From: an uncultured Gammaproteobacteria bacterium
GTDB taxonomy: Bacteria; Pseudomonadota; Gammaproteobacteria; Pseudomonadales; Azotimanducaceae
Assembly: GCA_942491135.1 (NCBI GenBank)
Contig: CALNZS010000005.1
Location: 58,260-122,259, forward strand
Direction: 5' to 3'
DNA: 64,000 nucleotides
Under the pieces are notes generated by a model. That model saw nothing but the letters and a program-made list of their open reading frames with translations. It made no database searches and was not told where the DNA came from. This document shows, piece by piece, positions 2,754 through 56,812 of the stretch. How positions within the stretch are numbered: position 1 is the first letter of the stretch; every line of letters starts with the position of its first letter. A program made the translations under genes and the position numbers.

Positions 2754-2774
2754 ACCGTCAGTGTTGACTTTTTC
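2754..2774 (+). promoter_or_regulatory. Copy of recurrent motif ACCGTCA-N4-TGAYTGT-TTT (candidate operator)
   Basis: ACCGTCA GTGT TGACTTT TTC, about 80 nt upstream of the MFS start at 2855. Confidence 0.45.
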
Positions 2775-2854
2775 TGCCCGCCACCAGAAGCTTCCCTGGG
2801 CATCTGGACGGCAGGGGAGATCCGAGTGCGGCCATTTCTCAGGATGTACGGGAC

Positions 2855-4192
2855 ATGAGCCGCCCGCTGAAGCGCTCGACCCTGTTCTACTACAGCCTCA
2901 CCGATCTGCCGGTGGCCATGTCGCTGTTTCCGGTGATGGTGTTCATCCCCCGGTTCTATGCCAGCGAAATCGGCGTGTCCCTGGCCACGATCGGCACGAT
3001 CATGTTCGTGGTCCGGATCTTCGACGTGGTCACCGATCCGTTCATGGGCTACCTGAGCGATCACACCCGGAGCCGCTTCGGGCGCCGCCGCCCTTGGATC
3101 CTGGCCGCGACGCCGATTCTGATGCTGTCGATCTACCAGCTCTTCATGCCGCCGGAGGGCGCCGGCGCGGCGCACATGATGATCTGGAGCATGGCGCTGT
3201 CCATCGGCACCACCATGATGCTCATCCCCTACTATGCCTGGGGCGCCGAGCTGTCCACCGACTACAACGAGCGCTCCCGTATCACCGGCGCCCGCGCCAT
3301 GGCCGGCATGCTGGGCAGCCTGTCGGCACAACTGGTGCCGGCGCTGGCGCTGATCCTGTTCGGCATCGGCGGCAGCTCCGCGGTGCTGCAGATCGTCGGC
3401 ATCACGATGCTGGTCGTCATGCCCATCAGCGTCCTGCTGACCCTCTGGGGCACGCCGGAAGCGCTGGTGGAGAAGCGTTCCACCCTGCCGGTGCTCCTGG
3501 GACTCAAACTGATGTGGCAGAACCGGCCGTTCAAGCAGCTCGTGGTCGCGTTCATGATCGGCTCGCTGGGTCTGAACGTCACCACGCCGCTGTACATCTT
3601 CTTCGTCGCCGACGTGCTCGGCGCCGAGGACAAAGCCATATTCATGCTCGCGTTCTTCTATCTGACGAGCTTCGCGTCGGTACCCTTCTGGGTCTGGTTC
3701 TCCGGGCGCATCGGCAAACACCGGGCCTACATCGCTTCCTTCGTCACGATTTCCTGTGCACACCCGTTCTATCTGCTGCTCGGCGAAGGAGACTTCTGGT
3801 GGATGCTGCCGGTCACGCTGGCCACCGGGTTCGCTGCCGGAGGTTTCGCGCAGACACTCCCCAACTCCATGAAGGCCGATGTCATCGACCTCGACACCGC
3901 GGCCAGTTCGGAGAATCGGGCCGCGCTGTTCTTCTCCGCCTGGTCGTTCGCCCAGAAGGCCACCTCTTCCCTGGGCGCGGTGATTGCCATGTTCGGCCTG
4001 GCGCTGCTCGGCTTCGACGCCGCACAGGGGGCCAACAACGGGCCCGACGAGCTGTTCGGTCTGCGCTTCCTGTTCTCCACCTTCCCGTCGCTGTTCTTCC
4101 TGCTGGGCGCCGCGATAGTCTGGAACTACCCCATCACGGAAGCGCGCCATGCCGAAATCCGGCGGGAGATCGAAGCCAAGTCGATGGCCTGA
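2855..4192 (+). CDS. MFS transporter, glycoside-pentoside-hexuronide (MelB-like) type
   Basis: 445-aa polytopic ORF. N-terminal YYSLTDLP...DPFMGYLSDHTRSRFGRRRPW block is typical of GPH/MFS_2. Confidence 0.8.
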   Translation: MSRPLKRSTLFYYSLTDLPVAMSLFPVMVFIPRFYASEIGVSLATIGTIMFVVRIFDVVTDPFMGYLSDHTRSRFGRRRPWILAATPILMLSIYQLFMPPEGAGAAHMMIWSMALSIGTTMMLIPYYAWGAELSTDYNERSRITGARAMAGMLGSLSAQLVPALALILFGIGGSSAVLQIVGITMLVVMPISVLLTLWGTPEALVEKRSTLPVLLGLKLMWQNRPFKQLVVAFMIGSLGLNVTTPLYIFFVADVLGAEDKAIFMLAFFYLTSFASVPFWVWFSGRIGKHRAYIASFVTISCAHPFYLLLGEGDFWWMLPVTLATGFAAGGFAQTLPNSMKADVIDLDTAASSENRAALFFSAWSFAQKATSSLGAVIAMFGLALLGFDAAQGANNGPDELFGLRFLFSTFPSLFFLLGAAIVWNYPITEARHAEIRREIEAKSMA

Positions 4193-4199
4193 CGGCGCC

Positions 4200-5021
4200 A
4201 TGCCGATGCGCAACGGCCAGCTGGTGGTGGAACCCGCCGTTGGCGCGCTGGGTGCCTTCGTCAGCGGCATCGACCTGAGCGCGCCACTGCCAGCGCCGGA
4301 CATCGACGACCTGCGGCGTCTCTGGCTGCATTATCAGGTGCTGTTCTTCCGCGATCAGTCCCTGGAGCCGGCGCAGCTCATGCGGGTCGCGCGTGCCTTC
4401 GGAGAGCCGATCCCATACCCCTTTCTTCCCGGTCTGGCGGGTCACGAAGCCATTACGGTGGTCGAGAAACGACCTGAAGACCGGGTCGCGTTCGGCGAGG
4501 TCTGGCACACCGACATGGCATACCTGGACACGCCGCCCAGCGCCACCCTGCTGCTGGCGCGGCAGACCCCGGCACAGGGCGGCGACACCCTGTGGGCCAG
4601 CCTGTACCAGGCTTTCGACGCCCTGTCGCCGGCACTGCAGGCCTGGCTCGGCACCCTGACCGTGATCAACCGTTCCGACCGGCCGGCGGTCAGCGCCACC
4701 CGCAGGCCGCCAGGCGCAGACGCCCACCGTGCACCGGTACTGGAGGCAGAGCACCCGCTGATCACCCGCCATCCCGAATCGGGTCGGCCCCTGCTGTACC
4801 TGAGTCCGGCACACGCATGCCGTTTCGGCGGCATGACCGACGCCGAAAGCCAGCCCATGATCGCCTGGCTGGCCGCGCACGCCATACGGCCGGAGTTCAC
4901 CTGCCGGCTGCGCTGGGCGCCAGGCACCCTGGCGCTCTGGGACAACCGCTGCTGCCTGCACTTCCCGGTCAACGACTACCCGGGCCAGGCGCGGGTCATG
5001 CACCGGGTAACGTTGGCCTGA
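4200..5021 (+). CDS. TauD/TfdA family Fe(II)/2-oxoglutarate dioxygenase
   Basis: WHTDMAY (HxD) and C-terminal LWDNRCCLH...R motifs. Start moved to the ATG at 4200 (MPMRNGQL), just after the MFS stop. Confidence 0.85.
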   Translation: MPMRNGQLVVEPAVGALGAFVSGIDLSAPLPAPDIDDLRRLWLHYQVLFFRDQSLEPAQLMRVARAFGEPIPYPFLPGLAGHEAITVVEKRPEDRVAFGEVWHTDMAYLDTPPSATLLLARQTPAQGGDTLWASLYQAFDALSPALQAWLGTLTVINRSDRPAVSATRRPPGADAHRAPVLEAEHPLITRHPESGRPLLYLSPAHACRFGGMTDAESQPMIAWLAAHAIRPEFTCRLRWAPGTLALWDNRCCLHFPVNDYPGQARVMHRVTLA

Positions 5022-5049
5022 CCCGATCCGCCCCTGCCGCCGGCGCCGT

Positions 5050-6162
5050 TCAGAGCAGCGCGCCGAGCTGTTCGCGATGCCAGACGCCATCGCCCAGCAG
5101 GAACTGACCGTGCATCTGCCGTTTGTGAAAGATCTGCACGTCCGCTTCCCAGGTGAAGCCGATGCCGCCGTGAAGCTGCGTTGCGCGATTGGAACAGAAC
5201 GAGGCGGTGTCGGACGCGCTGGCCTGGGCCATGTGAGCACAGCGCCGGGCGTCGTCCGGGTCGTGGTCGTAGGCGCAGGCCGCGTTATAGACCAGCGACC
5301 GGGTCTCGTCGGCCATGATCATCATGTTCACGATGGGGTGCTTGACCGCCTGGAAGAAACCGATGGGCCGATCGAACTGCCGGCGCACGGTGGCGTACTC
5401 CGCCGTGGACTGAAGCTGCCGCTCCGCCGCGCCGGCCATGTCCGCGGCCAGCAGGGTCCAGACCGCGGGCATGGCGCGGGCCAGCACTGCTTCGCCCGCA
5501 CCGGGCGCAGCAATCTCCTCTGCGGCAACGTCATCGAAGTTCAAGCGCCCCTGGTCCCGGGTCAGATCGACGATGCGGTCGCGCTGCAGCGAGGCGGCCT
5601 CCGCCTCCACGTGATACAGGCCGATGCCGGCATCCCCGCGGGCGGCAACCACGAAGCCGGCGGCCTTCTGCGGATCCTGTACGAACCAGCTGGTACCGGA
5701 CAGGCGGCCGTCCCGTACCTGCACGTCGGTGGAGTCGATCCCCGGCGAACCCTCCTGACCCGTGATGGCCAGGGCCAGACGGTGGCCCTGGGCCACCCGG
5801 GCCAACAGATCCGCGGCCGCGGCTTCGCGCAACACGAAAGTCGCCTGCAGGGTGCTGGTCAACGGGGTCGGGCAGGCAGCCCGGCCGACCTCCTCCTGGA
5901 TGGCCGCGGCCGCCACCAGCCCCATGCCGGCGCCGCCGGCTGCTTCCGGAACCGCCAGCAGGGTCCAGCCCAGGTTGACCATCTCGCTCCAGGCTTCCGG
6001 GTCGTACCAGCCCTCCCGCAGCTTGCCGCGGTAGGGGTCCTCGGTGCCCTCGATCTGTGGCCGCAGCGCGGTCAGCGGTTTCAGATCATCGAAGAAGCGC
6101 CGTGCGGCGTCCTTCAACATGCCGGTTTCGGCATCAAAGCCGAAGTCTCTCGGTTGGGTCAT
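5050..6162 (-). CDS. Acyl-CoA dehydrogenase family protein (second gene of an adjacent ACAD pair)
   Basis: 370-aa ORF with ACAD middle and C-terminal domain blocks (QLHGGIGFTWE). 15 nt downstream of the preceding ACAD gene. Confidence 0.85.
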   Translation of the reverse strand: MTQPRDFGFDAETGMLKDAARRFFDDLKPLTALRPQIEGTEDPYRGKLREGWYDPEAWSEMVNLGWTLLAVPEAAGGAGMGLVAAAAIQEEVGRAACPTPLTSTLQATFVLREAAAADLLARVAQGHRLALAITGQEGSPGIDSTDVQVRDGRLSGTSWFVQDPQKAAGFVVAARGDAGIGLYHVEAEAASLQRDRIVDLTRDQGRLNFDDVAAEEIAAPGAGEAVLARAMPAVWTLLAADMAGAAERQLQSTAEYATVRRQFDRPIGFFQAVKHPIVNMMIMADETRSLVYNAACAYDHDPDDARRCAHMAQASASDTASFCSNRATQLHGGIGFTWEADVQIFHKRQMHGQFLLGDGVWHREQLGALL

Positions 6163-6177
6163 GGTGTTCTCCCTGAA

Positions 6178-7386
6178 CTACTTGGTCTTGGGCAGGCCCA
6201 GAACCCGCTCGCCGAGAATGTTGCGCTGAATTTCGCTGCTGCCGCCGGAGATGGTTCCGGTGTAGCTGTTCATGTAAGCCAGCGCCCAGCGGCCATCTTC
6301 CACCGCGTGTTCGTCACCCACGTACAGACTGCTGCTCATGCCGAGCACGCCGAGCGCCGTCTCGTTGAGCGCCTGGCCGATTTCACTGCCCACCAGCTTG
6401 CCCTGCAGCGGCAGCCGCATCGGGCCGTCGGTGAGGGCCTCGACCCGGGCCCGGCGGCCGTTCTGCATGGCCGCTTCGATGCGCACGTACAGACTGACGA
6501 TGCGGTCACGCCACACCGGATCGTCCCAGACCGGCCGTCCATTGCGCCGCGTCGTTTTCGCCAGCTCGATGAGCTGAAGCACCCCGGACAGCGGCGACTC
6601 GCTGCTGGCCACGGCGCCAACCCCGGTGCCGGCGCCGCGTTCGTTGGTCAGGGTCGACATGGCCACCTTCCAGCCGGCGCCGACTTCGTCGACACGCAGA
6701 TCGTCGGGTACCACCACGTTTTCGAGAAACACCTCGTTGAAGCCGGCTTCCCCGGTCATCTTGTGAATCGGCCGCACGGTGACCCCGGGCTGATCCATGG
6801 ACGCCAGGAAGTAGGTGATGCCGTTGTATTTGTCGTTCTTGTCCGTTCTTGCCAGCAGCAACATCCAGCTCGCCAGGGCGCCGAGGCTGGTCCACACCTT
6901 GCTGCCGTTGATGATCCAGCCATCACCGTCTTTGACGGCCGACGTCTGCAGGGATACCAGATCGGAGCCGGCGCCGGGCTCACTGAAGCCCTGGCACCAG
7001 ATCTCCTCGGCGCTGAAGATGGGCGGCAGAAAACGCTGCTTCTGCGCCTCCGTGCCATGAATCAGCAGCGTCGGCGCGGTCATGCCGAGACCGATCCAGT
7101 TGATGAAATATGGCACCTTGGCGCGCCGCACCTCGGCACTGGCGATCGCCTGCAGATCGGTGTGACCGTGCCCGCCGTAGGCCCGCGGCACGTCGGTGGC
7201 AATGAGCCCCGCCTCGTAACAGCGCGCCTGCCAGTCGCACAGATAACGCCGGTGGTCGTCGTAGGTCACCTCGTAGGCGGCCTGGGGTAACGGCGTCTCC
7301 GTCGGCGGCGGCCGGTTCTCTTCCAGCCAGCGCCGGCAATAGTCGCGGAACTCGTCCTGCTCCGGTGAAGTTACTTTCTCTGTCAT
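6178..7386 (-). CDS. Acyl-CoA dehydrogenase family protein (first gene of the ACAD pair)
   Basis: Internal ATG of ORF 6178..8013 (MTEKVTSPEQDEF...). Blocks CQGFSEPGAGSD, GSKVWTS and GGSSEIQRNILGERVLGLP. Confidence 0.9.
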   Translation of the reverse strand: MTEKVTSPEQDEFRDYCRRWLEENRPPPTETPLPQAAYEVTYDDHRRYLCDWQARCYEAGLIATDVPRAYGGHGHTDLQAIASAEVRRAKVPYFINWIGLGMTAPTLLIHGTEAQKQRFLPPIFSAEEIWCQGFSEPGAGSDLVSLQTSAVKDGDGWIINGSKVWTSLGALASWMLLLARTDKNDKYNGITYFLASMDQPGVTVRPIHKMTGEAGFNEVFLENVVVPDDLRVDEVGAGWKVAMSTLTNERGAGTGVGAVASSESPLSGVLQLIELAKTTRRNGRPVWDDPVWRDRIVSLYVRIEAAMQNGRRARVEALTDGPMRLPLQGKLVGSEIGQALNETALGVLGMSSSLYVGDEHAVEDGRWALAYMNSYTGTISGGSSEIQRNILGERVLGLPKTK

Positions 7387-7456
7387 GCCTGCTCCCGACC
7401 CTCTATCTGCCGCGTTGCCCGACTGGGACCGCTTATGCTTGCATTTGCCCGCCGGA

Positions 7457-7477
7457 GAAACAATCATACATGACGGT
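7457..7477 (-). promoter_or_regulatory. Copy of recurrent motif (candidate operator)
   Basis: Minus strand reads ACCGTCA TGTA TGATTGT TTC. Lies in the divergent region between the ACAD start (7386) and the PPOX start (7522). Confidence 0.45.
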
Positions 7478-7521
7478 TTCGATTTTCTGCGCACCCGCGG
7501 CGCAATCAGGGGGAGAAAAAC

Positions 7522-8115
7522 TTGGTTCAGACTCACGACCACGAAATCGTCTCGATCTACCCGTTCAGTGACGACGAGGTGGATGCGCTGATGACTCATG
7601 CCGCAGAAGCGGTGCTGATGTGGGGAACCCGGGATGGGTGGCCCGTTGGCGTGACCCACGCCTTCTACTGGAAGGACGGCAAAATCTGGCTGACCTTCGC
7701 CGCCCACCGGCATCGCGCCGCGGCCATCCGCCGTGACCCGCGTGTGTCGGTCAACGTCAGCAGCGCCAGCTACCCGGCGGGTGCGCCCGAGGACCTGCCC
7801 CATGGCGCCATCACCTTCAAGGGCACCGTCGAGTTCTTCGACGACGACGCCACCAAAGCCTGGTTCTATCCGGCTCTGGCGAAGAAGGTCAGTCCGAGTG
7901 ACGCCGGCTTCGAGGAGTACTTCAACAATCTGCTGGACTCCCCGCTGCGGGTCATCATCGCCGTCACGCCGGTCAAGAAAATCATGTACAACTCCGCGAC
8001 CGCGGGCCGGCACATGGCCGGCACCATCAGCGAGGACGAACTCGGTGAGCGGCTCGAGGCCGACCGGGAACGCATGAACAAGCTCAGGGCCGAACGCGGC
8101 CTGGAGGAGCGCTGA
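7522..8115 (+). CDS. Pyridoxamine 5'-phosphate oxidase (PPOX) family flavin/deazaflavin-binding protein
   Basis: TTG start behind AGGGGGAG. Close paralog of 44628..45221 with shared blocks HEIVSIYPFSD, GKIW.TFAAHRHRA.AIRRD and LDSPLRVI.AVTPVKKIMYN. Confidence 0.75.
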   Translation: MVQTHDHEIVSIYPFSDDEVDALMTHAAEAVLMWGTRDGWPVGVTHAFYWKDGKIWLTFAAHRHRAAAIRRDPRVSVNVSSASYPAGAPEDLPHGAITFKGTVEFFDDDATKAWFYPALAKKVSPSDAGFEEYFNNLLDSPLRVIIAVTPVKKIMYNSATAGRHMAGTISEDELGERLEADRERMNKLRAERGLEER

Positions 8116-10624: not shown

Positions 10625-10625
10625 T

Positions 10626-11397: not shown

Positions 11398-12528
11398 TCA
11401 GATCAGTTCCTTCAGTTCCACCCCGGCCAGGCGGCGCGCCAGGCGGTCGCGCCAGCGACTCATCATGGCCTGGCCGCGCCCCGGGTCGATGGTGACATCG
11501 GCGCTCGGCGCCACCGCGGCCAGGGCCAGCACCAGGCCCCGCTGATAGTCGCGGCGCAAGTGCTCGAATTCATACCCGGTAACATTCAGCGCCGTATGGT
11601 AGCGACGGAGAATGTGCTCCACAGCAGCGGCGTCCGCCGCCTCGTGCAGGGCGCTGCCGAGAAAGTAGGCCACGTCGTAGGCCGCAGGGCCGGCGCGCAC
11701 CAGTTGCCAGTCGAGGTAGGCGCAATCGGTGCCGTTGAAACACACGTTGTCCAGCCGCAGGTCGTTGTGCATGAGGGTCGCTGGCACCTCCCGGGTCAGC
11801 ACCCGGGCAAGCTGCGCGTAGTGGTCGCCCAGCCACGCCACGTACGGCCGCAGACCCGGCCCGACCTCGTCAAGAAACGCCGGCACGTTGCGCTGCAGAA
11901 TGCCCTCGCGCATGCGCGCGTCGATATCCATGGGCAACAGCCAGAACTGTTCATCGAGCGCGGGATGAGCCCAGAACCGGCGGTGTGCCGGCGCAAACTG
12001 TTCCAGCACCCGGGCACAGGCCTCGGTGTCCGCGCCGGCGAGCTGGTCCCCCGGCCGGTAGGCTTCGAGGTCTTCCATCACCACCAGGTAACGGCGTTTC
12101 TTGGCGGCGGCGACCCGCATGCCCAGGTAACCGACCATGGGTGACAACAGCCGCGGCAGGCGATCCACAGCGCGCAGAATTTCCTTCTGCCGCGCCGAAC
12201 CCGCGTCCGGATCGTAATGACTGAAGTAGATGCGCGGGATCCGCACCGGGAAATCGGCGCCGTAAGCCTGAAAGAACAGCACCTCGCGCTCGTACACACC
12301 GAGCATCTCGCCCATCGGCCGGTTGGCCTTCTTGGGCAGCTTGGCGATGACGCTGGCCGGCGTCGCCGGATCCGCGCCATCGAGCCTGAGGCGGACGATG
12401 TCGCCGAGAAACCCCTGGCCCTGGCCCAGCAGTTCGCGCTCGGCGCCGTTCACCTTCCAGCCCAGGGCCTGGCCGAGCCACTCGGTGGTCAGCGCTTCCG
12501 GAGTCTCCGGAACGTCAGCCGGGCTCAT
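11398..12528 (-). CDS. Phosphotransferase family protein (APH/EcKL-like small-molecule kinase)
   Basis: 376 aa. Kinase catalytic loop LMHNDLRLDN followed by LDWQ. Overlaps the stop of the upstream HAD gene by 14 nt. Confidence 0.8.
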   Translation of the reverse strand: MSPADVPETPEALTTEWLGQALGWKVNGAERELLGQGQGFLGDIVRLRLDGADPATPASVIAKLPKKANRPMGEMLGVYEREVLFFQAYGADFPVRIPRIYFSHYDPDAGSARQKEILRAVDRLPRLLSPMVGYLGMRVAAAKKRRYLVVMEDLEAYRPGDQLAGADTEACARVLEQFAPAHRRFWAHPALDEQFWLLPMDIDARMREGILQRNVPAFLDEVGPGLRPYVAWLGDHYAQLARVLTREVPATLMHNDLRLDNVCFNGTDCAYLDWQLVRAGPAAYDVAYFLGSALHEAADAAAVEHILRRYHTALNVTGYEFEHLRRDYQRGLVLALAAVAPSADVTIDPGRGQAMMSRWRDRLARRLAGVELKELI

Positions 12529-13294: not shown

Positions 13295-13400
13295 CAGGCC
13301 GAGCCATCTTTGCTGGCGAACGTTTTCATGGTCGTCATCGGATCCCCCAGGCCATTTGAACACGCTACACTGCGCCGATACCAGCACAGGTGAATGTAAC

Positions 13401-23375: not shown

Positions 23376-24431
23376 TCAGCGCAGCAGCCGGAAGGCCTCC
23401 AGCTCGTCCAGCGCCGACAGCGATCCATCGAGCATGTCGGAGGCCAGCCGGACCCCACGCTCGTTGCCCATGTCCAGGGTGCCGGCGATGACCACGGCGT
23501 AACACAGCAGATACAGCGCGGCGACCTCATAGCGCCGGCTCGACGCCGCCAGGTCGTAGTCGATGCCGCGGCCCGCCAGCTCCTGGCTCAGCACCTGCTG
23601 ATAATGGGCCAGCAGATCCTGCTGGGACCGCACCGCCCTGGGCACGCTCTGGGTAACGAAGTAGGCCACGTCGTGCTCCGGCGCCGACCGGCACACGGCC
23701 TGCCAGTCCACCAGCGCAATCCGGCCATCACCCTGCGCACCCGGAAAGAACACATTGTCGATCCGCAGGTCACCGTGAATGACACACACCGGCGCCGCGC
23801 ACATTTCCTTCATGAGCCGGGGGACGTTGTCGGCGAATCCTGCGCCGATGTCCCGGGCGGACGCGGGAATCAACTCCGCAAAGCGCTCCAGGCAGGCCGG
23901 CCAGCCGGCCTGGAACCCGGCCATCATGCCGTCCCGCTGCATGGGATTGTCGTGCAGAATGATGTGATCGAGGTCCGCCGGAGCCCAGGCGCTGGCATGG
24001 AATCGGGCCAGGGTCGCCAGAATTTCCCGGGCCTCTTCCAGCGTACACCCAGCGACCTGATCGCCGACCCGAAAGCCCTTGAGATCCTCCAGCAGCAGAA
24101 CGAAATCGTGGCTGGCGGCGTCGAAATCGCCGAAGTAACAGGTGGGCGTACGGAGCTGCACCCGGGCCGCGACGTCCCGGTAGAAGCGCACCTCACGGCC
24201 GTACATGTCGTAGGTCTGTGCCACCTCGCGATTGACCGCGGCCGCCGATGGGAACTTGGCGATCACCGATGACGGACCGCCGGCCGCGTCCAGGTGCAGG
24301 CGCACGACCATGCCGATCAGCCCGGCACCTTCGCCGAAGCGCTCCACCTGGAACCCCCGTACGTCAGTCTGAAGCGCATCACTCAGCCACTGGGGCGTCA
24401 GCGCCTCGACCGACGTGGGAAAGCCGGCCAT
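23376..24431 (-). CDS. Phosphotransferase family protein (APH/EcKL-like small-molecule kinase)
   Basis: 351 aa. Catalytic loop VIHGDLRIDN followed by VDWQ. Confidence 0.8.
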   Translation of the reverse strand: MAGFPTSVEALTPQWLSDALQTDVRGFQVERFGEGAGLIGMVVRLHLDAAGGPSSVIAKFPSAAAVNREVAQTYDMYGREVRFYRDVAARVQLRTPTCYFGDFDAASHDFVLLLEDLKGFRVGDQVAGCTLEEAREILATLARFHASAWAPADLDHIILHDNPMQRDGMMAGFQAGWPACLERFAELIPASARDIGAGFADNVPRLMKEMCAAPVCVIHGDLRIDNVFFPGAQGDGRIALVDWQAVCRSAPEHDVAYFVTQSVPRAVRSQQDLLAHYQQVLSQELAGRGIDYDLAASSRRYEVAALYLLCYAVVIAGTLDMGNERGVRLASDMLDGSLSALDELEAFRLLR

Positions 24432-24912: not shown

Positions 24913-24933
24913 TCAAGCAGACTTGACTGTTTT
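24913..24933 (+). promoter_or_regulatory. Half-conserved copy of recurrent motif
   Basis: TCAAGCA GACT TGACTGT TTT, 60 nt upstream of the E1alpha start. Confidence 0.35.
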
Positions 24934-24992: not shown

Positions 24993-25964
24993 TTGACGGC
25001 ACAGATATCGGACGAGACGCTGCTGGACATCCATCGCCGCATGGTTCGAATTCGAATCTTCGAAGAGACCGCGGGCAAACTGATGGAGGACGGCAAGATC
25101 CCGGGGGCCCTGCACCTGTACGTTGGCCAGGAGGCCGTCGCTTCCGGGGTCATGGTGCATCTCAGCAACGAAGACTGGATCACCTCCACCCACCGGGGGC
25201 ACGGCCACCTGATCGCCAAGGGCGGCGCATTCGACCGCATGTTCGCCGAACTGTTCGGACGCGCCACCGGCTACTGCAAGGGCAAGGGCGGCAGCATGCA
25301 CATCTCCAACATGGAGCTCGGCATGCTCGGTGCCAACGGTATCGTCGGCGGCGGACCACCCATTGCGGTGGGCGCCGGGTTCTCCAACAAGTTCCGCAAG
25401 ACCCGCAACGTCGCGGTGCCGTTCTTCGGTGACGGGGCCAGCAACGAGGGCGCCTTCCACGAAGCCGCCAACATGGCTGCGCTGTTCAAGCTGCCGGTGG
25501 TCTTCGTCTGCGAGAACAACGGCTACGGCGAGTACACGGCGCAGGCCAATCATCAGGCCATCGTCGACGTCGCGGACCGGGCCGCCGGCTACGGCATGCC
25601 CGGGGTGGTGGTGGACGGCATGGACGCGGTGGCGGTGTACGAGGCCGCCGGCGAGGCCATCGAGCGGGCGCGCAACGGCGACGGCCCGACCCTGCTCGAG
25701 TGCAAGACCTACCGCTTCTACGACCACGTGGGCATTCGCGGCATGGGGCTGACCTACCGCACCGACGAGGAGGTCGCCTACTGGAAAGGCCGCGACCCGA
25801 TCAAGCTGCTGGAGGGCCGCCTGGCCGAACAGGGCATTCTGTCGGCGGACGCCGCCAAAGCCGTGCACGACGAGGTTGCGGCCGACGTGAAGGCCGGGGT
25901 CGAGTTCGCCGAATCCAGTCCCATGCCCGAGCCGGATGCCCTGCTCGAAGACGTCTACGCCTGA
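24993..25964 (+). CDS. Thiamine-diphosphate-dependent dehydrogenase E1 component, alpha subunit (acetoin/pyruvate dehydrogenase type)
   Basis: TTG start behind CAGGGGGAA. Blocks HLYVGQEA, GDGASNEG and FVCENNGYG. Confidence 0.9.
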   Translation: MTAQISDETLLDIHRRMVRIRIFEETAGKLMEDGKIPGALHLYVGQEAVASGVMVHLSNEDWITSTHRGHGHLIAKGGAFDRMFAELFGRATGYCKGKGGSMHISNMELGMLGANGIVGGGPPIAVGAGFSNKFRKTRNVAVPFFGDGASNEGAFHEAANMAALFKLPVVFVCENNGYGEYTAQANHQAIVDVADRAAGYGMPGVVVDGMDAVAVYEAAGEAIERARNGDGPTLLECKTYRFYDHVGIRGMGLTYRTDEEVAYWKGRDPIKLLEGRLAEQGILSADAAKAVHDEVAADVKAGVEFAESSPMPEPDALLEDVYA

Positions 25965-25975
25965 CCGGAGGAAAC

Positions 25976-26974
25976 ATGGCAGAAGCACAGGTACAAGCGC
26001 GTAAGCTCCCCTATGTCTCCGCGATCACCGACGGCGTACGCGCGGTGCTGCGGGAACAGGACAACAGTTTCGTCATCGGCGAGGACGTAGCCGGTGCCGG
26101 TAGCGTCTATGGCTACTACAAGGGCCTGCTCGAAGAGTTCGGTCCCGAGCGCATCTACGACACACCGATCTCCGAGGAAGGCATCATGGGTCTCGGGGTC
26201 GGCGCGGCCGCTACCGGCTGCCGGCCCATCGTCGACCTCATGTTCATGGACTTCATCGGCGAGTGCATGGACGAAATCGCCAACCAGCTCGCCAAGATGC
26301 GCTACATGTTCGGTGGACATGCCAAGCTGCCGGTGACGGTGCTGACCATGGCCGGCGCCGGCGCCAGCCTGGCCGCCCAGCACAGCCAGAGCCTGGAGTC
26401 CTGGCTGTGCCATCTGCCGGGCCTGAAGGTGGTGATGCCCACCACGCCCTACGACGCCAAGGGTCTGATCATCGCCGCCGCCCGGGACGACAATCCGGTG
26501 TTCGTGGTACTGAACAAGGTGTCACTGGCGATGTCCGGCGAGGTCCCCGAGGAGGTCTACGAAATTCCGCTCGGCGAGGCCAATGTCGTGCGCCAGGGCG
26601 GTGACTACACCATCGTGGCCACCGGGCGCATGCTGCACGAAGCGTTGAAAGCCGCCGAGGAGCTCAAGTCCCTGGGAGTCGACACGGAAGTGATCGACCC
26701 GCGCACCCTGCAGCCGTTCGACATCGATACGGTGGCCGAGTCGGTGCGCAAGACTCATCGCGTCATGGTCGTGCACGAGGCAGTCCGCACCGGCGGCCTC
26801 GGCGCCGAAATTGCAGCACAGATCCAGGAAGTGGCGTTCGACTATCTGGACGCCCCGGTCGCCCGGGTCGGCGCGCCGTTCTCGCCGGTGCCGTTCAGCC
26901 CGGCGCTGGAAGCCCACTACGTGCCGAACGCCGCGCGCATCGTCGCCGAGGCGCGCCAGCAACTGGCCATCTGA
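25976..26974 (+). CDS. 2-oxoacid dehydrogenase E1 component, beta subunit
   Basis: Internal ATG of ORF 25700..26974 behind GGAGGAAAC. Transketolase-like blocks IGEDV, DTPISEEG and HSQS. Confidence 0.9.
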   Translation: MAEAQVQARKLPYVSAITDGVRAVLREQDNSFVIGEDVAGAGSVYGYYKGLLEEFGPERIYDTPISEEGIMGLGVGAAATGCRPIVDLMFMDFIGECMDEIANQLAKMRYMFGGHAKLPVTVLTMAGAGASLAAQHSQSLESWLCHLPGLKVVMPTTPYDAKGLIIAAARDDNPVFVVLNKVSLAMSGEVPEEVYEIPLGEANVVRQGGDYTIVATGRMLHEALKAAEELKSLGVDTEVIDPRTLQPFDIDTVAESVRKTHRVMVVHEAVRTGGLGAEIAAQIQEVAFDYLDAPVARVGAPFSPVPFSPALEAHYVPNAARIVAEARQQLAI

Positions 26975-27004
26975 CTCCGGCCCGCAGGCGCTGCCAGCGG
27001 CATC

Positions 27005-28039
27005 ATGAGTGTCATCGGCATCATCGCCAATCCAGCCTCCGGCAAGGACATCCGGCGGCTGGTGGCCCGCGCCTCGGTGTTCGACAACCAGGAGAAGCAG
27101 GCCATCATCCGCCGCGCCCTGGCGGGTATTCAGGCCACCGCCGGCGACAACTGCCGGATCGCCTACCTGGACGATCCCCAGGGCATCTGCCGGCGGGCTC
27201 TGGCCGAGGTCTCCGGCGTGGACAGCCACGCAGTGACGGCCACCCGCACGGCCAGCGCGCTGGATACCCGGACTGCCGCCATGGCGCTCCGGGACGACGG
27301 CTGTCGAGTGGTCATGGTGCTGGGCGGCGACGGCACCAACCGGGCGGTTGCCTCGGTGTGGCCGGACGTGCCCGTCATCGCGTTGTCGACCGGCACCAAC
27401 AACGTCTTTCCCAGCCTCCAGGAAGCCACCATCGCGGGCGCCGCCGCCGGCCTCATTGCAAGCGATCAGGTAGCCCTGTCGGAGGTCGCAAGCCGCTGCA
27501 AGTGCATTCGGGTGGAGATCGACGGCGAGGACGACGACATCGCCCTGATCGACGCCGTGCACAGCCGCGAACGCTTCGTTGGTGCCCGGGCCCTGCTGTC
27601 GCCGGACAGTCTGCAGACCGTGTGCCTGACCCGGGCCGACCCGGCGGCGGTGGGTATGACCGCCATCGGCGGCCTGCTCGACCCGCTTGACGATGCCGCC
27701 GACGAAGGCCAGATCATCCACATCGGCCCGGGCGGGGTGACGGTCAATGCACCTATCGCCCCCGGACATTACACGCGGATCGGCATTGCCGGCTGGCGCC
27801 GTCTGCCGCTGGGGGAGTGGGTCGAGCTGCAGGGGCCGGGCGTTCTCGCCTTCGACGGCGAACGGGAACGGGTCCTGCGCCCGGACGGCCGGGCCCGGCT
27901 GCGGGTGGTGCGCGAAGGGCCCCGGGTGATCGACGTGCAGCGGACACTGTGGCTCGGCGCCCGACACCACGCTTTCCGGCAGAACCCATCGCGCGGGCCA
28001 GCGGATCCCGCACCGAACCGTCGTAGAGATTCAGCATAA
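27005..28039 (+). CDS. acoX: ATP-NAD kinase family protein (AcoX-like)
   Basis: 344 aa. The GGDGT motif (VLGGDGTNRAV) and its position inside an E1/E2 cluster match acetoin-catabolism acoX genes. Confidence 0.7.
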   Translation: MSVIGIIANPASGKDIRRLVARASVFDNQEKQAIIRRALAGIQATAGDNCRIAYLDDPQGICRRALAEVSGVDSHAVTATRTASALDTRTAAMALRDDGCRVVMVLGGDGTNRAVASVWPDVPVIALSTGTNNVFPSLQEATIAGAAAGLIASDQVALSEVASRCKCIRVEIDGEDDDIALIDAVHSRERFVGARALLSPDSLQTVCLTRADPAAVGMTAIGGLLDPLDDAADEGQIIHIGPGGVTVNAPIAPGHYTRIGIAGWRRLPLGEWVELQGPGVLAFDGERERVLRPDGRARLRVVREGPRVIDVQRTLWLGARHHAFRQNPSRGPADPAPNRRRDSA

Positions 28040-28048
28040 GGAGCACAG

Positions 28049-29547: not shown

Positions 29548-29568
29548 AAAACAATCACGCATGACGGA
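29548..29568 (-). promoter_or_regulatory. Copy of recurrent motif (candidate operator)
   Basis: Minus strand reads TCCGTCA TGCG TGATTGT TTT. About 60 nt upstream of the P450 start at 29630. Confidence 0.45.
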
Positions 29569-37966: not shown

Positions 37967-38395
37967 ATGATCAGCCAAGGCCCCATAGAAGATCGTCTTG
38001 CAATCCGCGAACTCGTCGAGTCCTACAATGACGCCGTCATGCGTTTCGATGCCGAGGCGTGGGGCGCCAACTGGTCGGAGGATGCCACCTGGTCCCTGCC
38101 CGGCGCCGGCGACGTGAACGGCCGCGACAATGTGGTCAACGTTTGGAAGCAGGCCATGTCGACGTTCTCGTTCGTCGGCTTCTTCGCCTCCGCCGGACCC
38201 ATCGTAGTGGACGGCGACAGCGCCACCGGCACCTGGTATCAGCAGGAATTTCTGCACCAGAAGGACGGGGTCAACCGCAACATCACCGGCCTCTACCAGG
38301 ACGAATACGTCAAAAGCGGCGGGCGCTGGCTGTTCCGCAAACGCGCCTACTCGATTCTGAACGCGGAGGAAACGCCTGCCGCCGCGGCCGGCTGA
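37967..38395 (+). CDS. NTF2/SnoaL-like family protein
   Basis: ATG behind AAGGAGG (MISQGPIEDRLAIRELVESYN...), 142 aa. Confidence 0.75.
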   Translation: MISQGPIEDRLAIRELVESYNDAVMRFDAEAWGANWSEDATWSLPGAGDVNGRDNVVNVWKQAMSTFSFVGFFASAGPIVVDGDSATGTWYQQEFLHQKDGVNRNITGLYQDEYVKSGGRWLFRKRAYSILNAEETPAAAAG

Positions 38396-38900: not shown

Positions 38901-38929
38901 TTGACATTCTGCCCAGCGAACAAAACAAT
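38901..38929 (+). promoter_or_regulatory. Candidate sigma70-type promoter of the Rieske operon
   Basis: TTGACA, 17-nt spacer, AACAAT. The -10 element overlaps the motif copy at 38922..38942. Confidence 0.35.
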
Positions 38930-38942
38930 CACCAGATCCGGT
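38922..38942 (-). promoter_or_regulatory. Copy of recurrent motif (candidate operator)
   Basis: Minus strand reads ACCGGAT CTGG TGATTGT TTT. Lies in the divergent region between NTF2 (38868) and Rieske (38993). Confidence 0.4.
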
Positions 38943-41242: not shown

Positions 41243-42433
41243 CTACTTACCCGGCGCCGGACCGCCGGTGCCGGCAAACTCCGGTGAGGCCTCGTGACCG
41301 AGCAGGATCTTGCCGAGCTCCTGATACAGCGGATGGGCCACCCAGCGGTGGGTGGCGCAGGCGCGTGAGTCCCGGAGCTTGCGTTCCAGGGCACTGGTCA
41401 TGCGCATACCGCTGGTGCCGGCGGCATTGTGCAGGCTGTCCACCACCGTCATGCAGGTGTTGGCCGCGTGCACGCACGCCAGCCGGGCATTCTGGGTGGT
41501 TGCCGCCGACGGCGCCTCGGCCCCGGCCGCGAGCTCTTCCTCGATGTCGCGCATGGCCGCCATGACCCAGGACCGGGCCGCGCGGTAAGTGGCGGTCGCT
41601 TCGCCCATGCGGTACTGGGCGATGGGCCGGTCCGCCAGCGAGGACAGCGACAGCATGGGAATCTTGTTGCGCGCAATGTCCGAGAACGCCTGCAGCGCCC
41701 CGCGTGCCACTCCCAGCGCCACCGCCGCCTTGTTATAGGACAGACGCAGGGGCACCGGCATCCGGTACACCGGGTTCGGATAAAGCGGCGGCACCACCAT
41801 CAGGTCCACCGGGACGAATCGGGGTTCCACGTAGGCGCCCTCGGCCCGCACGTCGTGGCTGCCGGAACCGCGGAGCCCGGCGACGTCCCAGGTGTCGAGA
41901 ATCTCCCACTGATCCCGCGGCAGCATCCACAGCTTGAAGATCGGCGCGCCGTTTTCGTCCGTGTCCGGTTCCTCACCGCGCATCAGCGGCGCGCCCATGA
42001 AGCACCAGTGAGCCTGATGGCAACCGCTGATGAACGTGGTCTGACCCCAGACCCGGACGCCGCCGTCTTCCTGCCGTTCGGCGCGCGGCGGCGTGCTGCC
42101 GGGCCCGCCGCCGCCGCACATGATCACGCCAGGATTGTCCACATAGACTTCCCGGGCCAGTTCCGCCGGCATGCCGCCGGCCGCCATGGCGTTGATCTCG
42201 GAACCGATCATCACGTTCCAGGCCACGGAAGCATCCACCGCCGCCACCGCCTCGAGGATCTCGATGGTCTGGGTAGCGCTGGCGTCTTCGCCGCCCAGTT
42301 CCGGCGGCAGGGTGAAACGGAAGAAGCCCTCATCGACCAGCGTTTCGACGATGCCGTTCGGCAATCGCCGAAGCTGCTGGGCCTCGTCCCCGGCCGCTTC
42401 GATCTGCGGCGTCAGACGCTCGATGGTGTTCAT
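41243..42433 (-). CDS. Acyl-CoA dehydrogenase family protein (possibly flavin-dependent monooxygenase type)
   Basis: Internal ATG (MNTIERLTPQIEAAGDEAQQLRRLP...). ACAD N, middle and C-terminal domain pattern without an obvious CoA-ester signature. Confidence 0.7.
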   Translation of the reverse strand: MNTIERLTPQIEAAGDEAQQLRRLPNGIVETLVDEGFFRFTLPPELGGEDASATQTIEILEAVAAVDASVAWNVMIGSEINAMAAGGMPAELAREVYVDNPGVIMCGGGGPGSTPPRAERQEDGGVRVWGQTTFISGCHQAHWCFMGAPLMRGEEPDTDENGAPIFKLWMLPRDQWEILDTWDVAGLRGSGSHDVRAEGAYVEPRFVPVDLMVVPPLYPNPVYRMPVPLRLSYNKAAVALGVARGALQAFSDIARNKIPMLSLSSLADRPIAQYRMGEATATYRAARSWVMAAMRDIEEELAAGAEAPSAATTQNARLACVHAANTCMTVVDSLHNAAGTSGMRMTSALERKLRDSRACATHRWVAHPLYQELGKILLGHEASPEFAGTGGPAPGK

Positions 42434-42540
42434 CCGGCTTTCGAACTGAGTGGCGTTCTGCACGACTGTTCCCCTTCTCCCGCGAGTCACTCGCGTCGCT
42501 GCGCTACCAAGGCCCACGAGCCTACACAGCGACGGCAATT

Positions 42541-42561
42541 ACCGTCAAGCATGACTGTTTT
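42541..42561 (+). promoter_or_regulatory. Copy of recurrent motif (candidate operator)
   Basis: ACCGTCA AGCA TGACTGT TTT, ~110 nt upstream of the start at 42433. Its TCA is the stop codon of the VOC gene 42545..43015. Confidence 0.5.
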
Positions 42562-43667: not shown

Positions 43668-43688
43668 ACCATCTACGTTGACTGTTTT
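43668..43688 (+). promoter_or_regulatory. Copy of recurrent motif (candidate operator)
   Basis: ACCATCT ACGT TGACTGT TTT, ~55 nt upstream of the SDR start at 43744. Confidence 0.4.
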
Positions 43689-46025: not shown

Positions 46026-46050
46026 ACATTCATGCTTGCTTGACTCTTTT
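46026..46050 (+). promoter_or_regulatory. Variant copy of recurrent motif (8-nt spacer)
   Basis: ACATTCA TGCTTGCT TGACTCT TTT, ~55 nt upstream of the TonB-dependent receptor start. Confidence 0.3.
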
Positions 46051-46103
46051 TTGCCGGTGGTCTAATACTCTCCCCGCGCTACATCGCTCTGGGAGAGAGA
46101 AAG

Positions 46104-50905: not shown

Positions 50906-51002
50906 GGGCCCTCCGCAAAATCCAGCATCAATGACGGAAAGTATGCGGATTCCCTCCGGTCGCGGCCAGCAGCACAGGGACAAGCCGCACCGCTGCCGAC
51001 AA

Positions 51003-51023
51003 AAAACAGTCATAGTTGACGGT
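51003..51023 (-). promoter_or_regulatory. Copy of recurrent motif (candidate operator)
   Basis: Minus strand reads ACCGTCA ACTA TGACTGT TTT, between NTF2 (50905) and Rieske (51072). On the plus strand, TTGACG, 18-nt spacer, TAATCT could be the Rieske promoter. Confidence 0.5.
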
Positions 51024-54019: not shown

Positions 54020-54029
54020 CCCGCCGGAG

Positions 54030-54440: not shown

Positions 54441-54451
54441 TGCGCCGGCCC

Positions 54452-55042
54452 TCAGCGGACCACGGTGGCTTCCTGACCCCACGGACTGATGGTCGAACCA
54501 TCGGTCCGGAAAGCCTCGGGAAGTTCGTCCACCATGTGATAGGTCGCCGCCAGGCGCCCGAATCCGACGAAGAACGCGCAGACCATGCCCAGTTCGACGA
54601 TCTCGGCTTCCGTGAAGTGCTCGTGCAGCCGCGCGTACATCGCGTCGTCGATGGCCAGGTGGTCGGTGGCCATGAGTTCGCCGTAGGCAATGGCGGTCTT
54701 CTCCGCTTCAGTCAGGTCCGCGGCCTCCTGGGGACGCTCCAGGGAACACACCAGATCCTCGGTCACACCATCGGCAACGGCATCCCGGTAGCGGATCGCC
54801 ATGCAGCTCCGGCACTGATTGAAGAAAGCGATGCGCAGCCGCACCAGCTCCACCAGCCGCTCCGGCAGCGTACGGGACACCTTCAGCGCGCGGCCGAAGG
54901 ACATCAGCCCCAGCGCCAGCTCGGGGCAGTGCGCGAAGTAGCGGCTCAGACCCTGCTCCAGGTCGGTGAGCTGTTCCGGATGAATCGCTTCACGCAGCCG
55001 CGGGTCCCAGTCGTCCGCAGCCACCTTGCTGATTCGGCCCAT
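54452..55042 (-). CDS. Carboxymuconolactone decarboxylase (AhpD-like) family protein, CxxC form
   Basis: 196 aa, RLRIAFFNQCRSCMAIRY. This is the Cys-containing paralog of 15662..16186. Confidence 0.8.
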   Translation of the reverse strand: MGRISKVAADDWDPRLREAIHPEQLTDLEQGLSRYFAHCPELALGLMSFGRALKVSRTLPERLVELVRLRIAFFNQCRSCMAIRYRDAVADGVTEDLVCSLERPQEAADLTEAEKTAIAYGELMATDHLAIDDAMYARLHEHFTEAEIVELGMVCAFFVGFGRLAATYHMVDELPEAFRTDGSTISPWGQEATVVR

Positions 55043-55099
55043 GATTCCTCCCCTCGACGAGTGTTGCGTGCCCCATCCAAACTAGAGAGACGGAGACTT

Positions 55100-55120
55100 A
55101 CCGTCAAGCGTGACGGATTT
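55100..55120 (+). promoter_or_regulatory. Copy of recurrent motif (candidate operator)
   Basis: ACCGTCA AGCG TGACGGA TTT, the most palindromic copy. 58 nt upstream of the start at 55042. Its TCA is the stop codon of 55104..56132. Confidence 0.5.
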
Positions 55121-56132
55121 CCAGATCGAGCAGGGTTCGGATCCCCGGCGCCGCCTTACAGACCGCGGGGATGGCATTCACCGCGTGCATGGCCGTGGCC
55201 AGCAGCCCGTCGGAAATCCAGGTCGGCGCGATGTCGAAGTGCATGCGCGGCTCGCCCTCGATGCTGACCGAGTGGGCGCCGGTGGGCCACGATGGCGCGA
55301 CCGAACCATGCATCCGCCAGACCGTCTCGTGCACCACCCGCACCTGCCCGTCGCGCACCCCGCGCCAGGTCCAGTGCTGCCCGGCCACGGTGCCGCGCCG
55401 GACCACCCCGGACGCGGTGTCCAGATCCGCCGGCGCGAGCGCGGTTTCCATCTCCGACTGCACCTCGTCCACGGCCAGGCCGGTGCCGTCGGCAAGCAAC
55501 TGGATGCTCTCGCGGAACAGCCCGTTCAGCCAGATCCGGCGCCTTTCGCCGCGCGCCTCGAAGGTCGCCTGATCGGAACCGAACCCCATGCTGTCGAACA
55601 TGATCTCCGGAGACGGGTAGTCCTGGAAGTTGGAGATTTCCCGGACCACGATGCGCTCGATGCGCCGGGACAGCGCGCTCATGGACAGCGGCAGCATGTC
55701 ACCCATCCAGCCCGGATTGAGTCCCGTCGAGTGGAAGGTGCTGGCGCCGGCCCGGCAGGCCGACTCCAGGGCGTCGACGACTGCCGGGCCATGGGACTTC
55801 GGGTACAGATAACCCACCACGGTGATGACGTTCTTGCCCGCGGCCAGCAGACGGCAGATGTCGTGCAGATCCTGGTCCGGATCGTCACCGTAGACCATGG
55901 AAGGCAGTGGTGCATGAATCACCACCTCGGCATCCGAACCGCAAACCGCGGCAAGATCGGTGGTGGTCTCGATGCCGAGGCGCTCGACCCCCAGAACCTC
56001 ACCGGCGTCGCGTCCGGCCTTGTCCGCCGATCGGACCTGCAGTCCTACCAGTTCAAGTTCCGGCCGCCGCAGGACTTCACGGGCGGCATGAGCGCCCACG
56101 GTACCGCTGGACCATTGAAAAACCCGCGTCAT
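55104..56132 (-). CDS. DapB-like NAD(P)-binding oxidoreductase (dihydrodipicolinate-reductase/amine-dehydrogenase-like family)
   Basis: 342 aa. N-terminal Rossmann block WSSGTVGAHAAREVLRRPELELVG. Confidence 0.55.
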   Translation of the reverse strand: MTRVFQWSSGTVGAHAAREVLRRPELELVGLQVRSADKAGRDAGEVLGVERLGIETTTDLAAVCGSDAEVVIHAPLPSMVYGDDPDQDLHDICRLLAAGKNVITVVGYLYPKSHGPAVVDALESACRAGASTFHSTGLNPGWMGDMLPLSMSALSRRIERIVVREISNFQDYPSPEIMFDSMGFGSDQATFEARGERRRIWLNGLFRESIQLLADGTGLAVDEVQSEMETALAPADLDTASGVVRRGTVAGQHWTWRGVRDGQVRVVHETVWRMHGSVAPSWPTGAHSVSIEGEPRMHFDIAPTWISDGLLATAMHAVNAIPAVCKAAPGIRTLLDLEIRHA

Positions 56133-56196
56133 GGAGTCCTCCCCTCAGGCAGATTGTCGATACACTGTTGATCCGTTCTCTAAACCCGGTGCGGTC

Positions 56197-56673
56197 ATGA
56201 CGGACAGTTCCCTGGCGCAGCGGCTGCAGCGACTCGAGGACATCGAGGCCATCCGGCAGCTCAAGGCGCGCTATTGCGCCGCCTGCGACGACGACCACAA
56301 CCCGGAAACCCTGGCCGCGCTGTTTCATGACGACGCCGTCTGGGAAGCCACCAGCAACGGCCGCTTCGAAGGGATTGCGGCCATTCGCGGGTTTTTCTCC
56401 GGATTGCGCGCCAGCGGCCGCATCCGGCGCTCGGCGCACCACGCCATCAACCCGGTCATCGAGGTCGACGGCGACCGGGCCAGCGGCCACTGGCGCCTCA
56501 TCATGCTGTACAGCACCATGACTTCGACCGGACAGCTTCAGCACCTGCGCATCATCGGCTGGTACCGGGAGCAGTACCGGCGCCACCTCGGGGAATGGCG
56601 CTTTCAGAGCCTGTACTGCGAGGTCGAGGAACACGACCCCTACCCGGTGTTCGCCCCGTCCGGGGATGACTGA
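56197..56673 (+). CDS. NTF2/SnoaL-like family protein
   Basis: Internal ATG (MTDSSLAQRLQRLEDIEAIRQLKARY...), 158 aa. Confidence 0.75.
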   Translation: MTDSSLAQRLQRLEDIEAIRQLKARYCAACDDDHNPETLAALFHDDAVWEATSNGRFEGIAAIRGFFSGLRASGRIRRSAHHAINPVIEVDGDRASGHWRLIMLYSTMTSTGQLQHLRIIGWYREQYRRHLGEWRFQSLYCEVEEHDPYPVFAPSGDD

Positions 56674-56791
56674 ACCCACTCCAGCCCGCTCCCATCACGT
56701 CTGACTCCTGCTTTCCGGTTTCCAGCGCCGGTGCTGGAAACGTGCACCCGGGACTGGACGATGCGCGCCGACCTTGGGCACAATGGCGGCG

Positions 56792-56812
56792 AAAACAGTC
56801 ATTTTGTCCGGT
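56792..56812 (-). promoter_or_regulatory. Copy of recurrent motif (candidate operator)
   Basis: Minus strand reads ACCGGAC AAAA TGACTGT TTT. About 25 nt upstream of the ADH start at 56837. Confidence 0.4.

Follow-up and report, generated by a model that had tools for sequence, protein, structure and literature searches.

The window considered here is the whole 64-kb stretch of DNA, which has a GC content of 66% and carries a dense catabolic island from 2.7 kb onward. Transport functions in the island are represented by two TonB-dependent receptors (TBDRs) and three MFS transporters. The oxygenases are a TauD-type dioxygenase, two P450s and five Rieske oxygenase alpha subunits (RHO), each of the latter encoded beside SnoaL/NTF2-like genes. 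The island also contains about a dozen SDR genes, a heteromeric acyl-CoA dehydrogenase (ACAD) pair with distant similarity to PimC/PimD and IpdE2, two EcKL/APH kinases, an E1alpha/E1beta/NAD-kinase-like/E2 set (2-oxoacid dehydrogenase complex), as well as PNPOx-like, CMD, ThuA, EthD, luciferase-like, MaoC hydratase and CoA ligase proteins. Genes were mapped using the GC content of third codon positions and Pfam, and operons were deduced from strand runs and gaps. We describe a palindromic motif, ACCGTCA-N4-TGAYTGT, that recurs between the genes of this island, and a TetR-family regulator gene at 61394–62209. The motif pattern is real and non-random. With a probability of roughly 0.6, we read it as an operator recognized by a TetR-family repressor, this TetR being the most probable one.

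The motif was first noticed in a sequence-only reading of the window, and all 13 copies listed there, along with a looser one at 46026, were found in place. When up to three mismatches were allowed, the pattern gave 24 strand-matches (~15 distinct sites), compared to 6.6 ± 2.8 in dinucleotide shuffles, none of 100 shuffles attaining 24. A position weight matrix (PWM) of 26 nt with a threshold of 14 bits or more found 15 sites in the window and 0–1 per whole-window shuffle; shuffled intergenic sequence contained 0.035 sites on average. This matrix recovers the loose copy at 46026 and adds a site at 50921–50938. Only 7.2% of the window is non-coding. Thirteen of the 15 PWM sites fall wholly within this fraction, and the remaining two (42541 and 55100) straddle a stop codon. 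The comparison of motif density with background, proposed along with the original listing, thus came out in favor of the motif, all sites being intergenic or at a gene boundary although 92.8% of the window is coding. Start codons are 40–120 nt away from the 15 sites, and at least seven sites lie in spacers between divergent starts. Operators of TetR-family repressors are expected to be inverted repeats of roughly 15–30 bp with promoter or intergenic placement at the regulated genes; the motif is a repeat of this kind, and all 15 sites have such a placement.

The sites and the regulator gene are as follows. Scores of 17–19 bits were obtained with a model built from TetR-proximal sites of other genomes, which is described below; L120 is a related contig, also described below.

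2754..2771, +: site ACCGTCA-GTGT-TGACTTT, 32 bits, upstream of the MFS_2-TauD operon
7460..7477, −: site ACCGTCA-TGTA-TGATTGT, in the divergent spacer between the ACAD pair (−) and PNPOx1-RHO1 (+)
8134: weak or variant site
13380..13397, +: variant site ACCAGCA-CAGG-TGAATGT, in the start region of HAD (−) and a luciferase-like gene (+), 18.4 bits
15090..15107, +: site in the ThuA1 (−)/CMD1 (+) divergent spacer, 37–39 bits
17793..17810, +: variant site ACCAGCA-CCCA-TGAAGGT, in the SDR3 (−)/enoyl-CoA hydratase (+) spacer, 17.4 bits
21231..21248, +: site in the SDR4-MFS1 (−)/P450a-SDR5 (+) divergent spacer, 39 bits
24869..24886, +: first site of a tandem pair 44 bp apart, in the ABM-EcKL2 (−)/E1alpha-E1beta-AcoX-E2 (+) spacer
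24913..24930, +: site TCAAGCA-GACT-TGACTGT, second of the tandem pair, in the same ABM-EcKL2/E1alpha spacer
29551..29568, −: site in inverted orientation, upstream of the P450b-SDR6-Glyox1-TBDR1-MFS2 operon
38925..38942, −: site in the SnoaL1 (−)/RHO2-SnoaL2-SnoaL3 (+) spacer, overlapping the −10 box of a promoter-like TTGACA-17-AACAAT
42541..42558, +: site with the top score, 43 bits, between the Glyox2 stop and the ACAD2 start (both genes −)
43668..43685, +: site upstream of SDR8-PNPOx2-SDR9
46026..46043, +: weak or variant site ACATTCA-TGCT-TGCTTGA, upstream of TBDR2, overlapping the −35 box of a promoter-like TTGACT-18-AATACT
50921..50938, −: weaker site TCCGTCA-TTGA-TGCTGGA, in the SnoaL4/RHO3 spacer, 85 bp from the site at 51006, kept in L120, absent from the original listing
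51006..51023, −: site in the SnoaL4 (−)/RHO3-AMP-ligase (+) spacer, kept in L120
55100..55117, +: near-perfect palindrome ACCGTCA-AGCG-TGACGGA, between the DAPDH-like stop and the CMD2 start, kept in L120
56795..56812, −: site upstream of Zn-ADH-RHO4, kept in L120
61227..61244: variant palindrome CCCTTCA-CTCG-TGAAGGT, in the SDR11-SDR10 (−)/TetR (+) divergent spacer, candidate autoregulatory operator, 17.8 bits
61394..62209, +: TetR-family regulator gene (Pfam TetR_N PF00440, E=3.6e-11; HTH at aa 74–112), candidate repressor

The strong sites stand ahead of about 19 transcription units, and variant sites with the ..CA-N4-TG.. skeleton (13380, 17793, 8134, 46026 and 61227) ahead of about seven more. 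According to the operon map of the window, only a few units, namely EthD, Glyox2, Glyox3 and SnoaL5, have no site. The functions originally assigned to the downstream genes agree broadly with Pfam, save for 7522–8115, which is PNPOx-like and not CMD. One more weak variant, ACCAGCG-GGCG-TGCAGGA at ~37877, lies just upstream of a previously unlisted SnoaL/NTF2-like open reading frame (ORF) at 37970–38395 (+), which occupies the apparent 545-bp gap after SDR7.

Alignment of the copies shows that the 5’ flank is A/T-rich (A or T at positions −1 and 0, A at −2) and that the 3’ tail is TTT(T). With these flanks the 7+4+7 core extends to an imperfect palindrome of 24–26 bp, (A/T)AAAC[C/A][G/A]TCA-N4-TGA[C/T][T/G]GTTTT. 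The TTT tail and the inverted repeat of the sequence-only reading are borne out, and the element is longer than noted there. G13, A14, T19 and T20 are invariant across 13 copies, and the left arm is conserved as strongly as the right one. Ten of 13 sites are heterotypic, combining a CCG-type with a CA-type arm (binomial P ~0.05, calculated by hand from the arm counts); we do not build on this.

A palindrome followed by TTTT may also be a structural repeat, either an intrinsic terminator (7-bp stem, 4-nt loop and T-run) or a REP/MITE-like element, and the sites at 2754 and 43668 do lie 15–30 nt past a stop codon in the right orientation. However, the hairpins formed by the sites are weak and inconsistent, with folding energies from 0 to −8 kcal/mol, mostly from −3 to −5, and the consensus stem contains a C·U mismatch. 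The terminator scan called a stem-loop in the motif’s own register at none of 13 sites, and the sites in spacers between divergent starts lie where no transcript ends. It is the sequence that is conserved, not the pairing. We therefore set aside the intrinsic terminator. Outside ~26 nt the sequences of the copies are unrelated, hence the motif is not a dispersed repeat element, and a REP/MITE-like origin was rejected as well. Altogether, a structural explanation seems very improbable.

To assess conservation, we scanned a collection containing one genome per species with the pattern ACCGTCANNNNTGAYTGTTT and obtained exact matches in at least 119 loci (designated by L numbers below); the following observations hold among the matches listed. 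About 25 of the 119 loci are true relatives, whereas the rest are chance matches in unrelated phyla. The relatives are all gammaproteobacterial metagenome-assembled genomes (MAGs), from Ca. Azotimanducaceae, Halioglobus/Halieaceae and unclassified Pseudomonadales. The extended flanks are present in them too. The closest relatives (82–86% amino-acid identity) are Azotimanducaceae-type genomes. The motif was found upstream of ACAD_b orthologues in L012 and L092 (82–85% amino-acid identity) and upstream of PNPOx1 and MFS_2 orthologues in L108, L118 and L010; the MFS_2 loci of L118 and L108 correspond to window site 2754. It is also present in the Glyox3/RHO spacers of L064 and L091 (cf. 51006), in the RHO4/SDR1 spacers of L044, L070 and L088 (cf. 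56795), and upstream of P450s in L023, L079 and L087, the latter being an orthologue of P450b (cf. 29551). Several 8-kb loci contain two copies. In alignments of orthologous spacers with a mean identity of 51–54% the motif forms the invariant block, as seen for the site at 7460–7477 aligned with L012, L092, L108, L118 and L010. The L120 contig, whose TetR is 96% identical to that of the window, is syntenic with the right end of the window; the sites are kept there, and two more occur past the window end. The motif is thus conserved upstream of orthologous genes, i.e. phylogenetically footprinted, as the sequence-only reading had proposed to check.

Some relatives carry extra local regulators. 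L091 encodes at 4264–5010 a TetR (TetR_C_32) that is unrelated to the window TetR, lies inside the orthologous island and has its own palindrome, TACTACCGGTAGA, just upstream. Being unrelated to the window TetR, this neighboring TetR (4264–4968) was set aside.

The orientation of the sites bears on the possibility that the motif is a core promoter element, with the T-rich arm (T)TGACTGTTTT acting as the −35 box, or a class-II activator site with an activating dimer centered near −40. The right arm is often TTGACT, in 10 of 14 sites the closest start lies on the side of the T-rich arm, −10-like CAAACT or CAGAAT occurs ~15–17 nt downstream of several sites, and TTGACT at 46040 was called a −35 box by the promoter scan. 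That scan predicted four sigma-70-like promoters in 60 kb, two of them overlapping sites (38901–38929 and 46040–46069); given that an E. coli-type scan is nearly empty in sequence with 66% GC, it says little about promoter geometry. On the other hand, four of the 13–14 copies have the reverse orientation with respect to the nearest start, in agreement with the original listing, and the orientation relative to PNPOx1 is reversed between the orthologous spacers of L108 and L118. Such a flip is easier to reconcile with a symmetric operator than with a promoter element, which has a direction. The equal conservation of the left arm, the lack of CRP/FNR-type or other activator genes among the window ORFs scanned, and the palindromes that cover the start codon or promoter of TetR genes in other genomes (see below), a classic autorepression arrangement, also argue against a promoter or activator role, which we regard as quite improbable. 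The intergenic sites, the footprints upstream of orthologues and the orientation flips speak for an operator, which was also the interpretation of the sequence-only reading, and the overlap of sites with two of the four predicted promoters counts in its favor as well.

Among ~65 ORFs of the 64-kb window scanned by Pfam, no second regulator was found besides the TetR gene, in line with the initial claim, and there is no further one in the ~8 kb past the window end covered by L120. The window TetR belongs to an uncharacterized subfamily known only from metagenomes (homologues P0001–P0054). Searches of PDB and NCBIfam with its sequence gave no characterized close relative, the best PDB match being SmeT (E=2.6e-8), and no NCBIfam equivalog. 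The protein begins with a basic tail of ~65 aa (61394–61590) that is of low complexity and rich in K/R/A/S/T (AAKTSTRGAAAKRTSRASSNKDSS...). Orthologues at 63–81% identity have basic tails too, of variable sequence, and the tail is closer to histone-H1/AlgP-like tails than to the short "TFR arm". A small FdxA-type ferredoxin gene (62230–62521, −) is convergent with TetR. Every orthologous locus with an identity of 63% or more shows this pairing.

Upstream of the TetR gene the sequence-only reading had seen only a loose resemblance to the motif. This part of it has to be corrected, since an operator-like palindrome occupies 61227–61244. It is kept in L145, whereas in L120 both arms are changed together, giving CCATTCA-CTCG-TGAATGG; such a concerted change of the two arms is what one expects where a dimer binds. 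The segment previously pointed out as the loose resemblance, GGCTGTTTTTCC at ~61330, is better read as the spacer of a promoter-like block. This block, TGGACC-N17-TAGACT at 61317–61346, is conserved upstream of TetR and has equivalents in L120 and L145.

Homologues of the window TetR (33–71% identity) in other genomes have palindromes of the same architecture beside or upstream of their own genes. The orthologues with 63–71% identity sit in similar islands beside ferredoxin and P450s and have CAAGTCA-N4-TGACTTT in the ferredoxin/P450 spacer. In L121 and L122, CCCTTCA-N4-TGACTTT is found in the spacer between the P450 and the TetR operon, and in L146 and L148, TCCAGCA-N4-TGAAGGT is found upstream of ABM-TetR. 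Homologues with 39–54% identity have ACCATCA-AGCC-TGATGGT (L138) or ACCATCA-CTTA-TGACTTT (L130 and L135) 55–110 bp upstream of their own gene. In the clade with 33% identity (L076 type), two full-consensus copies 36 bp apart overlap the start of a TetR-FA_hydroxylase operon, the second one lying over the start codon (L076, 2176–2237; L151, 9951–10012; L153, 9922–9983; three genomes sharing down to 45% identity). In this operon, known from Myxococcota and "Proteobacteria" MAGs, TetR is co-transcribed with a membrane protein of the fatty-acid-hydroxylase/sterol-desaturase family. Clear cases of palindromes at the regulator’s own or divergent promoter are L130, L135, L138, L122, L146, L148, L076, L151 and L153, while the window’s own site is a variant and not the island consensus.

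Arm types are mixed within single sites, e.g. CCCTTCA with TGACTTT. Moreover, at an orthologous position TGATTGT of L146 is replaced by TGCTGGT in L148, with identical spacer and flanks. Together, the mixing and the swap point to one degenerate half-site, AC[C/A]N[T/G]CA. A symmetric half-site model built from window sites only gave 14 hits in 16 loci of TetR homologues, with 2.85 expected. Its five best hits (18–20 bits) are all no more than 390 bp away from a TetR gene, although such zones account for just 11% of the sequence. Conversely, a model built from foreign TetR-proximal sites alone found 12 window sites with scores of at least 16 bits, including the one at 61227, with 0.12 expected.

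The assignment of the motif to a TetR-family repressor builds on sites that are intergenic, enriched, kept upstream of orthologues and associated with the TetR genes of the clade. The suggestion of a dimeric-repressor regulon with this TetR as the candidate, already made in the sequence-only reading, gains support from the palindromes near TetR homologues and from the conserved variant in the TetR/SDR11 spacer. Several points weigh against this assignment, in particular against the choice of the window TetR. The test with the foreign-site model is partly circular, as the foreign sites were picked with the skeleton of the window motif; the window-only model is the cleaner test, yet it covers only about three independent lineages. 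The spacer of the TetR itself contains a variant with CCTTCA arms rather than the island consensus. The orthologues with 63–71% identity have no ACCGTCA copies within 10–20 kb, and their islands show 1–3 nearby sites with AAGTCA or CCTTCA arms; the expansion to more than 15 sites would then be lineage-specific or served by a paralogue. For the loci with multiple motif copies (L118, L064 and L091), the comparison is confined to 8 kb each and does not bear on the window-type TetR. Finally, promoters of consensus type can hardly be detected in this sequence, so only two sites are seen to overlap one.

These observations bring in a regulator whose gene lies beyond the window. It may be a TetR paralogue from the same clade, e.g. 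one nearer to the L076 type, or an unrelated factor. If an outside regulator served the island, the window TetR would govern only the local neighborhood of SDR11-SDR10, ferredoxin and P450 via the CCTTCA/AAGTCA variants. The variant at the window TetR and the few variant sites of its orthologues, which lack nearby ACCGTCA copies, would be accounted for, and so would the exact island consensus at L076-type TetRs. But the arm mixing within single sites and the swap between L146 and L148 argue for a single, degenerate specificity, the 64 kb and the ~8 kb beyond (L120) yielded no second regulator, and in the collected loci a tblastn search with the L076-type TetR matched only the window TetR family. 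We consider an outside regulator rather unlikely, and the TetR at 61394–62209 the probable binder.

Binding, repression (not activation), ligand release, and the choice of this TetR rather than a paralogue are proposed here, the repressive mode being inferred from the family. A TetR dimer would bind two inverted half-sites AC[C/A][G/A]TCA with 4 bp between them and A/T tracts outside; possibly, two dimers occupy the extended site of 24–26 bp. A single site in a divergent spacer could serve both operons. In the absence of the pathway substrate or an early, possibly CoA-activated, intermediate, the repressor would sit on its sites and block RNA polymerase. Binding of the ligand at the C-terminal domain would release the repressor, and the whole island would be induced together. 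Contact of the basic tail with the A/T flanks is plausible but speculative, since L076-type TetRs have no tail and yet the same flanked motif. As a regulatory mechanism, a TetR repressor with a palindromic operator is ordinary; its scale is unusually large.

The host lineages are known mostly as MAGs. The operator-like motif, common to nearly all operons of the island, groups genes that belong together and can be used to look for this pathway in further genomes; in addition, it points to one protein whose ligand would reveal the substrate. Its main value is as a tag that delimits an as yet unassigned pathway in uncultured gammaproteobacteria. If the more tentative reading is true in which this TetR clade is the master switch of the island (see the comparison with KstR below), the operator could serve as a computational tag for the complete pathway, one for alicyclic, terpenoid- or steroid-like compounds, in a large number of marine and soil MAGs. 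The operator grammar is common to TetRs that are only 33% identical, as in Myxococcota, and the recognition code would then be ancient and portable.

Some features of the island genes deserve mention on their own. The E1alpha/E1beta/NAD-kinase-like/E2 set (24993–29440) has an order like that of acoABXC (acetoin-type 2-oxoacid dehydrogenase) and sits behind two tandem operator-like sites instead of a sigma-54 promoter. The EcKL/APH-type kinases adjoin genes of the ACAD family (11398–12528, 23376–24431, 5050–7380 and 41243–42490, all −). A combination of kinase and ACAD is known from 4-hydroxyacyl-CoA catabolism (LvaA/LvaC, ACAD10/11), which these neighbors recall. The left end of the window (8–2723) does not belong to the regulon. 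Its genes code for a multicopper-oxidase/cupredoxin-cytochrome c fusion, SCO1/SenC and a member of the FGE-sulfatase family. This copper-enzyme maturation set is unrelated to the island, and the first site at 2754 marks the island boundary.

Several described systems were compared with the motif. The PsrA box, G/CAAAC-N2-4-GTTTG/C, is bound by a TetR-family protein in gammaproteobacterial fatty-acid regulons. It resembles our case in the protein family, the host class, the outer AAAC...GTTT and the acyl-CoA catabolic genes; it was rejected given that AAAC and GTTT are 14 bp apart here instead of N2-4, and the core is [C/A][G/A]TCA-N4-TGA. FNR/FixK-type sites (TTGAT-N4-ATCAA) share the inverted repeat, the 4-bp central spacer and a frequent position at −35, and CRP-type sites read TGTGA-N6-TCACA. 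In these the half-site and register differ from ..TCA-N4-TGA.., no cNMP-binding or HTH_Crp protein is present among the ORFs scanned, and the association of the motif is with TetR genes. The consensus sequences of the Pho box (direct repeats), LexA, Fur and FadR (GntR) misfit the inverted ..TCA-N4-TGA.. as well. Searches of open-access text for motif strings and for the combination of gene contents yielded no description of this operator; together with the family searches, this agrees with the initial impression that it was not a described one.

In SimR, a basic N-terminal arm binds the minor groove, and such arms are common in the TetR family (PMC3241653). Similarly, the window TetR and its orthologues have a K/R-rich extension before the HTH, and the arms of the sites are flanked by A/T tracts (narrow minor groove); unlike in SimR, the tail of the window TetR is much longer (~65 aa) and of low complexity.

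The closest parallel in organization is KstR (Rv3574), the TetR-type protein by which mycobacteria and rhodococci repress cholesterol and lipid catabolism (PMC1995591; PMC3068626). In mycobacteria, its palindromic motif occurs in its own promoter and in 16–31 other intergenic regions, and 74–83 genes of lipid and steroid catabolism are under its control (PMC1995591). Both systems combine a TetR-family regulator with a short palindrome in many intergenic copies over a large catabolic cluster, with single sites in divergent spacers that, in the window, would serve both operons. KstR also has a site in its own promoter, to which the candidate autoregulatory palindrome at 61227 may correspond. The genes are also alike: P450s, Rieske oxygenases, heteromeric acyl-CoA dehydrogenases, MaoC hydratases, SDRs and CoA ligases. 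The KstR motif, TnnAACnnGTTnnA, is 14 bp long and has no N4 gap (PMC1995591), in contrast to ACCGTCA-N4-TGACTGT with A/T flanks. The hosts are Actinobacteria there and Gammaproteobacteria here, and uptake proceeds via Mce4 there, as opposed to TBDRs and MFS transporters. The best 60 of 67 PDB sequence hits with E≤0.01 include no KstR chain, and no NCBIfam equivalog was found. Since the two systems differ in motif, protein lineage, host phylum and uptake, the window TetR is not a member of the KstR family. More tentatively, and as the less likely case, an uncharacterized TetR clade with a histone-like K/R/A-rich tail might act as master switch for a catabolic island exceeding 60 kb in uncultured Azotimanducaceae-/Halieaceae-type gammaproteobacteria, a convergent, KstR-like solution.

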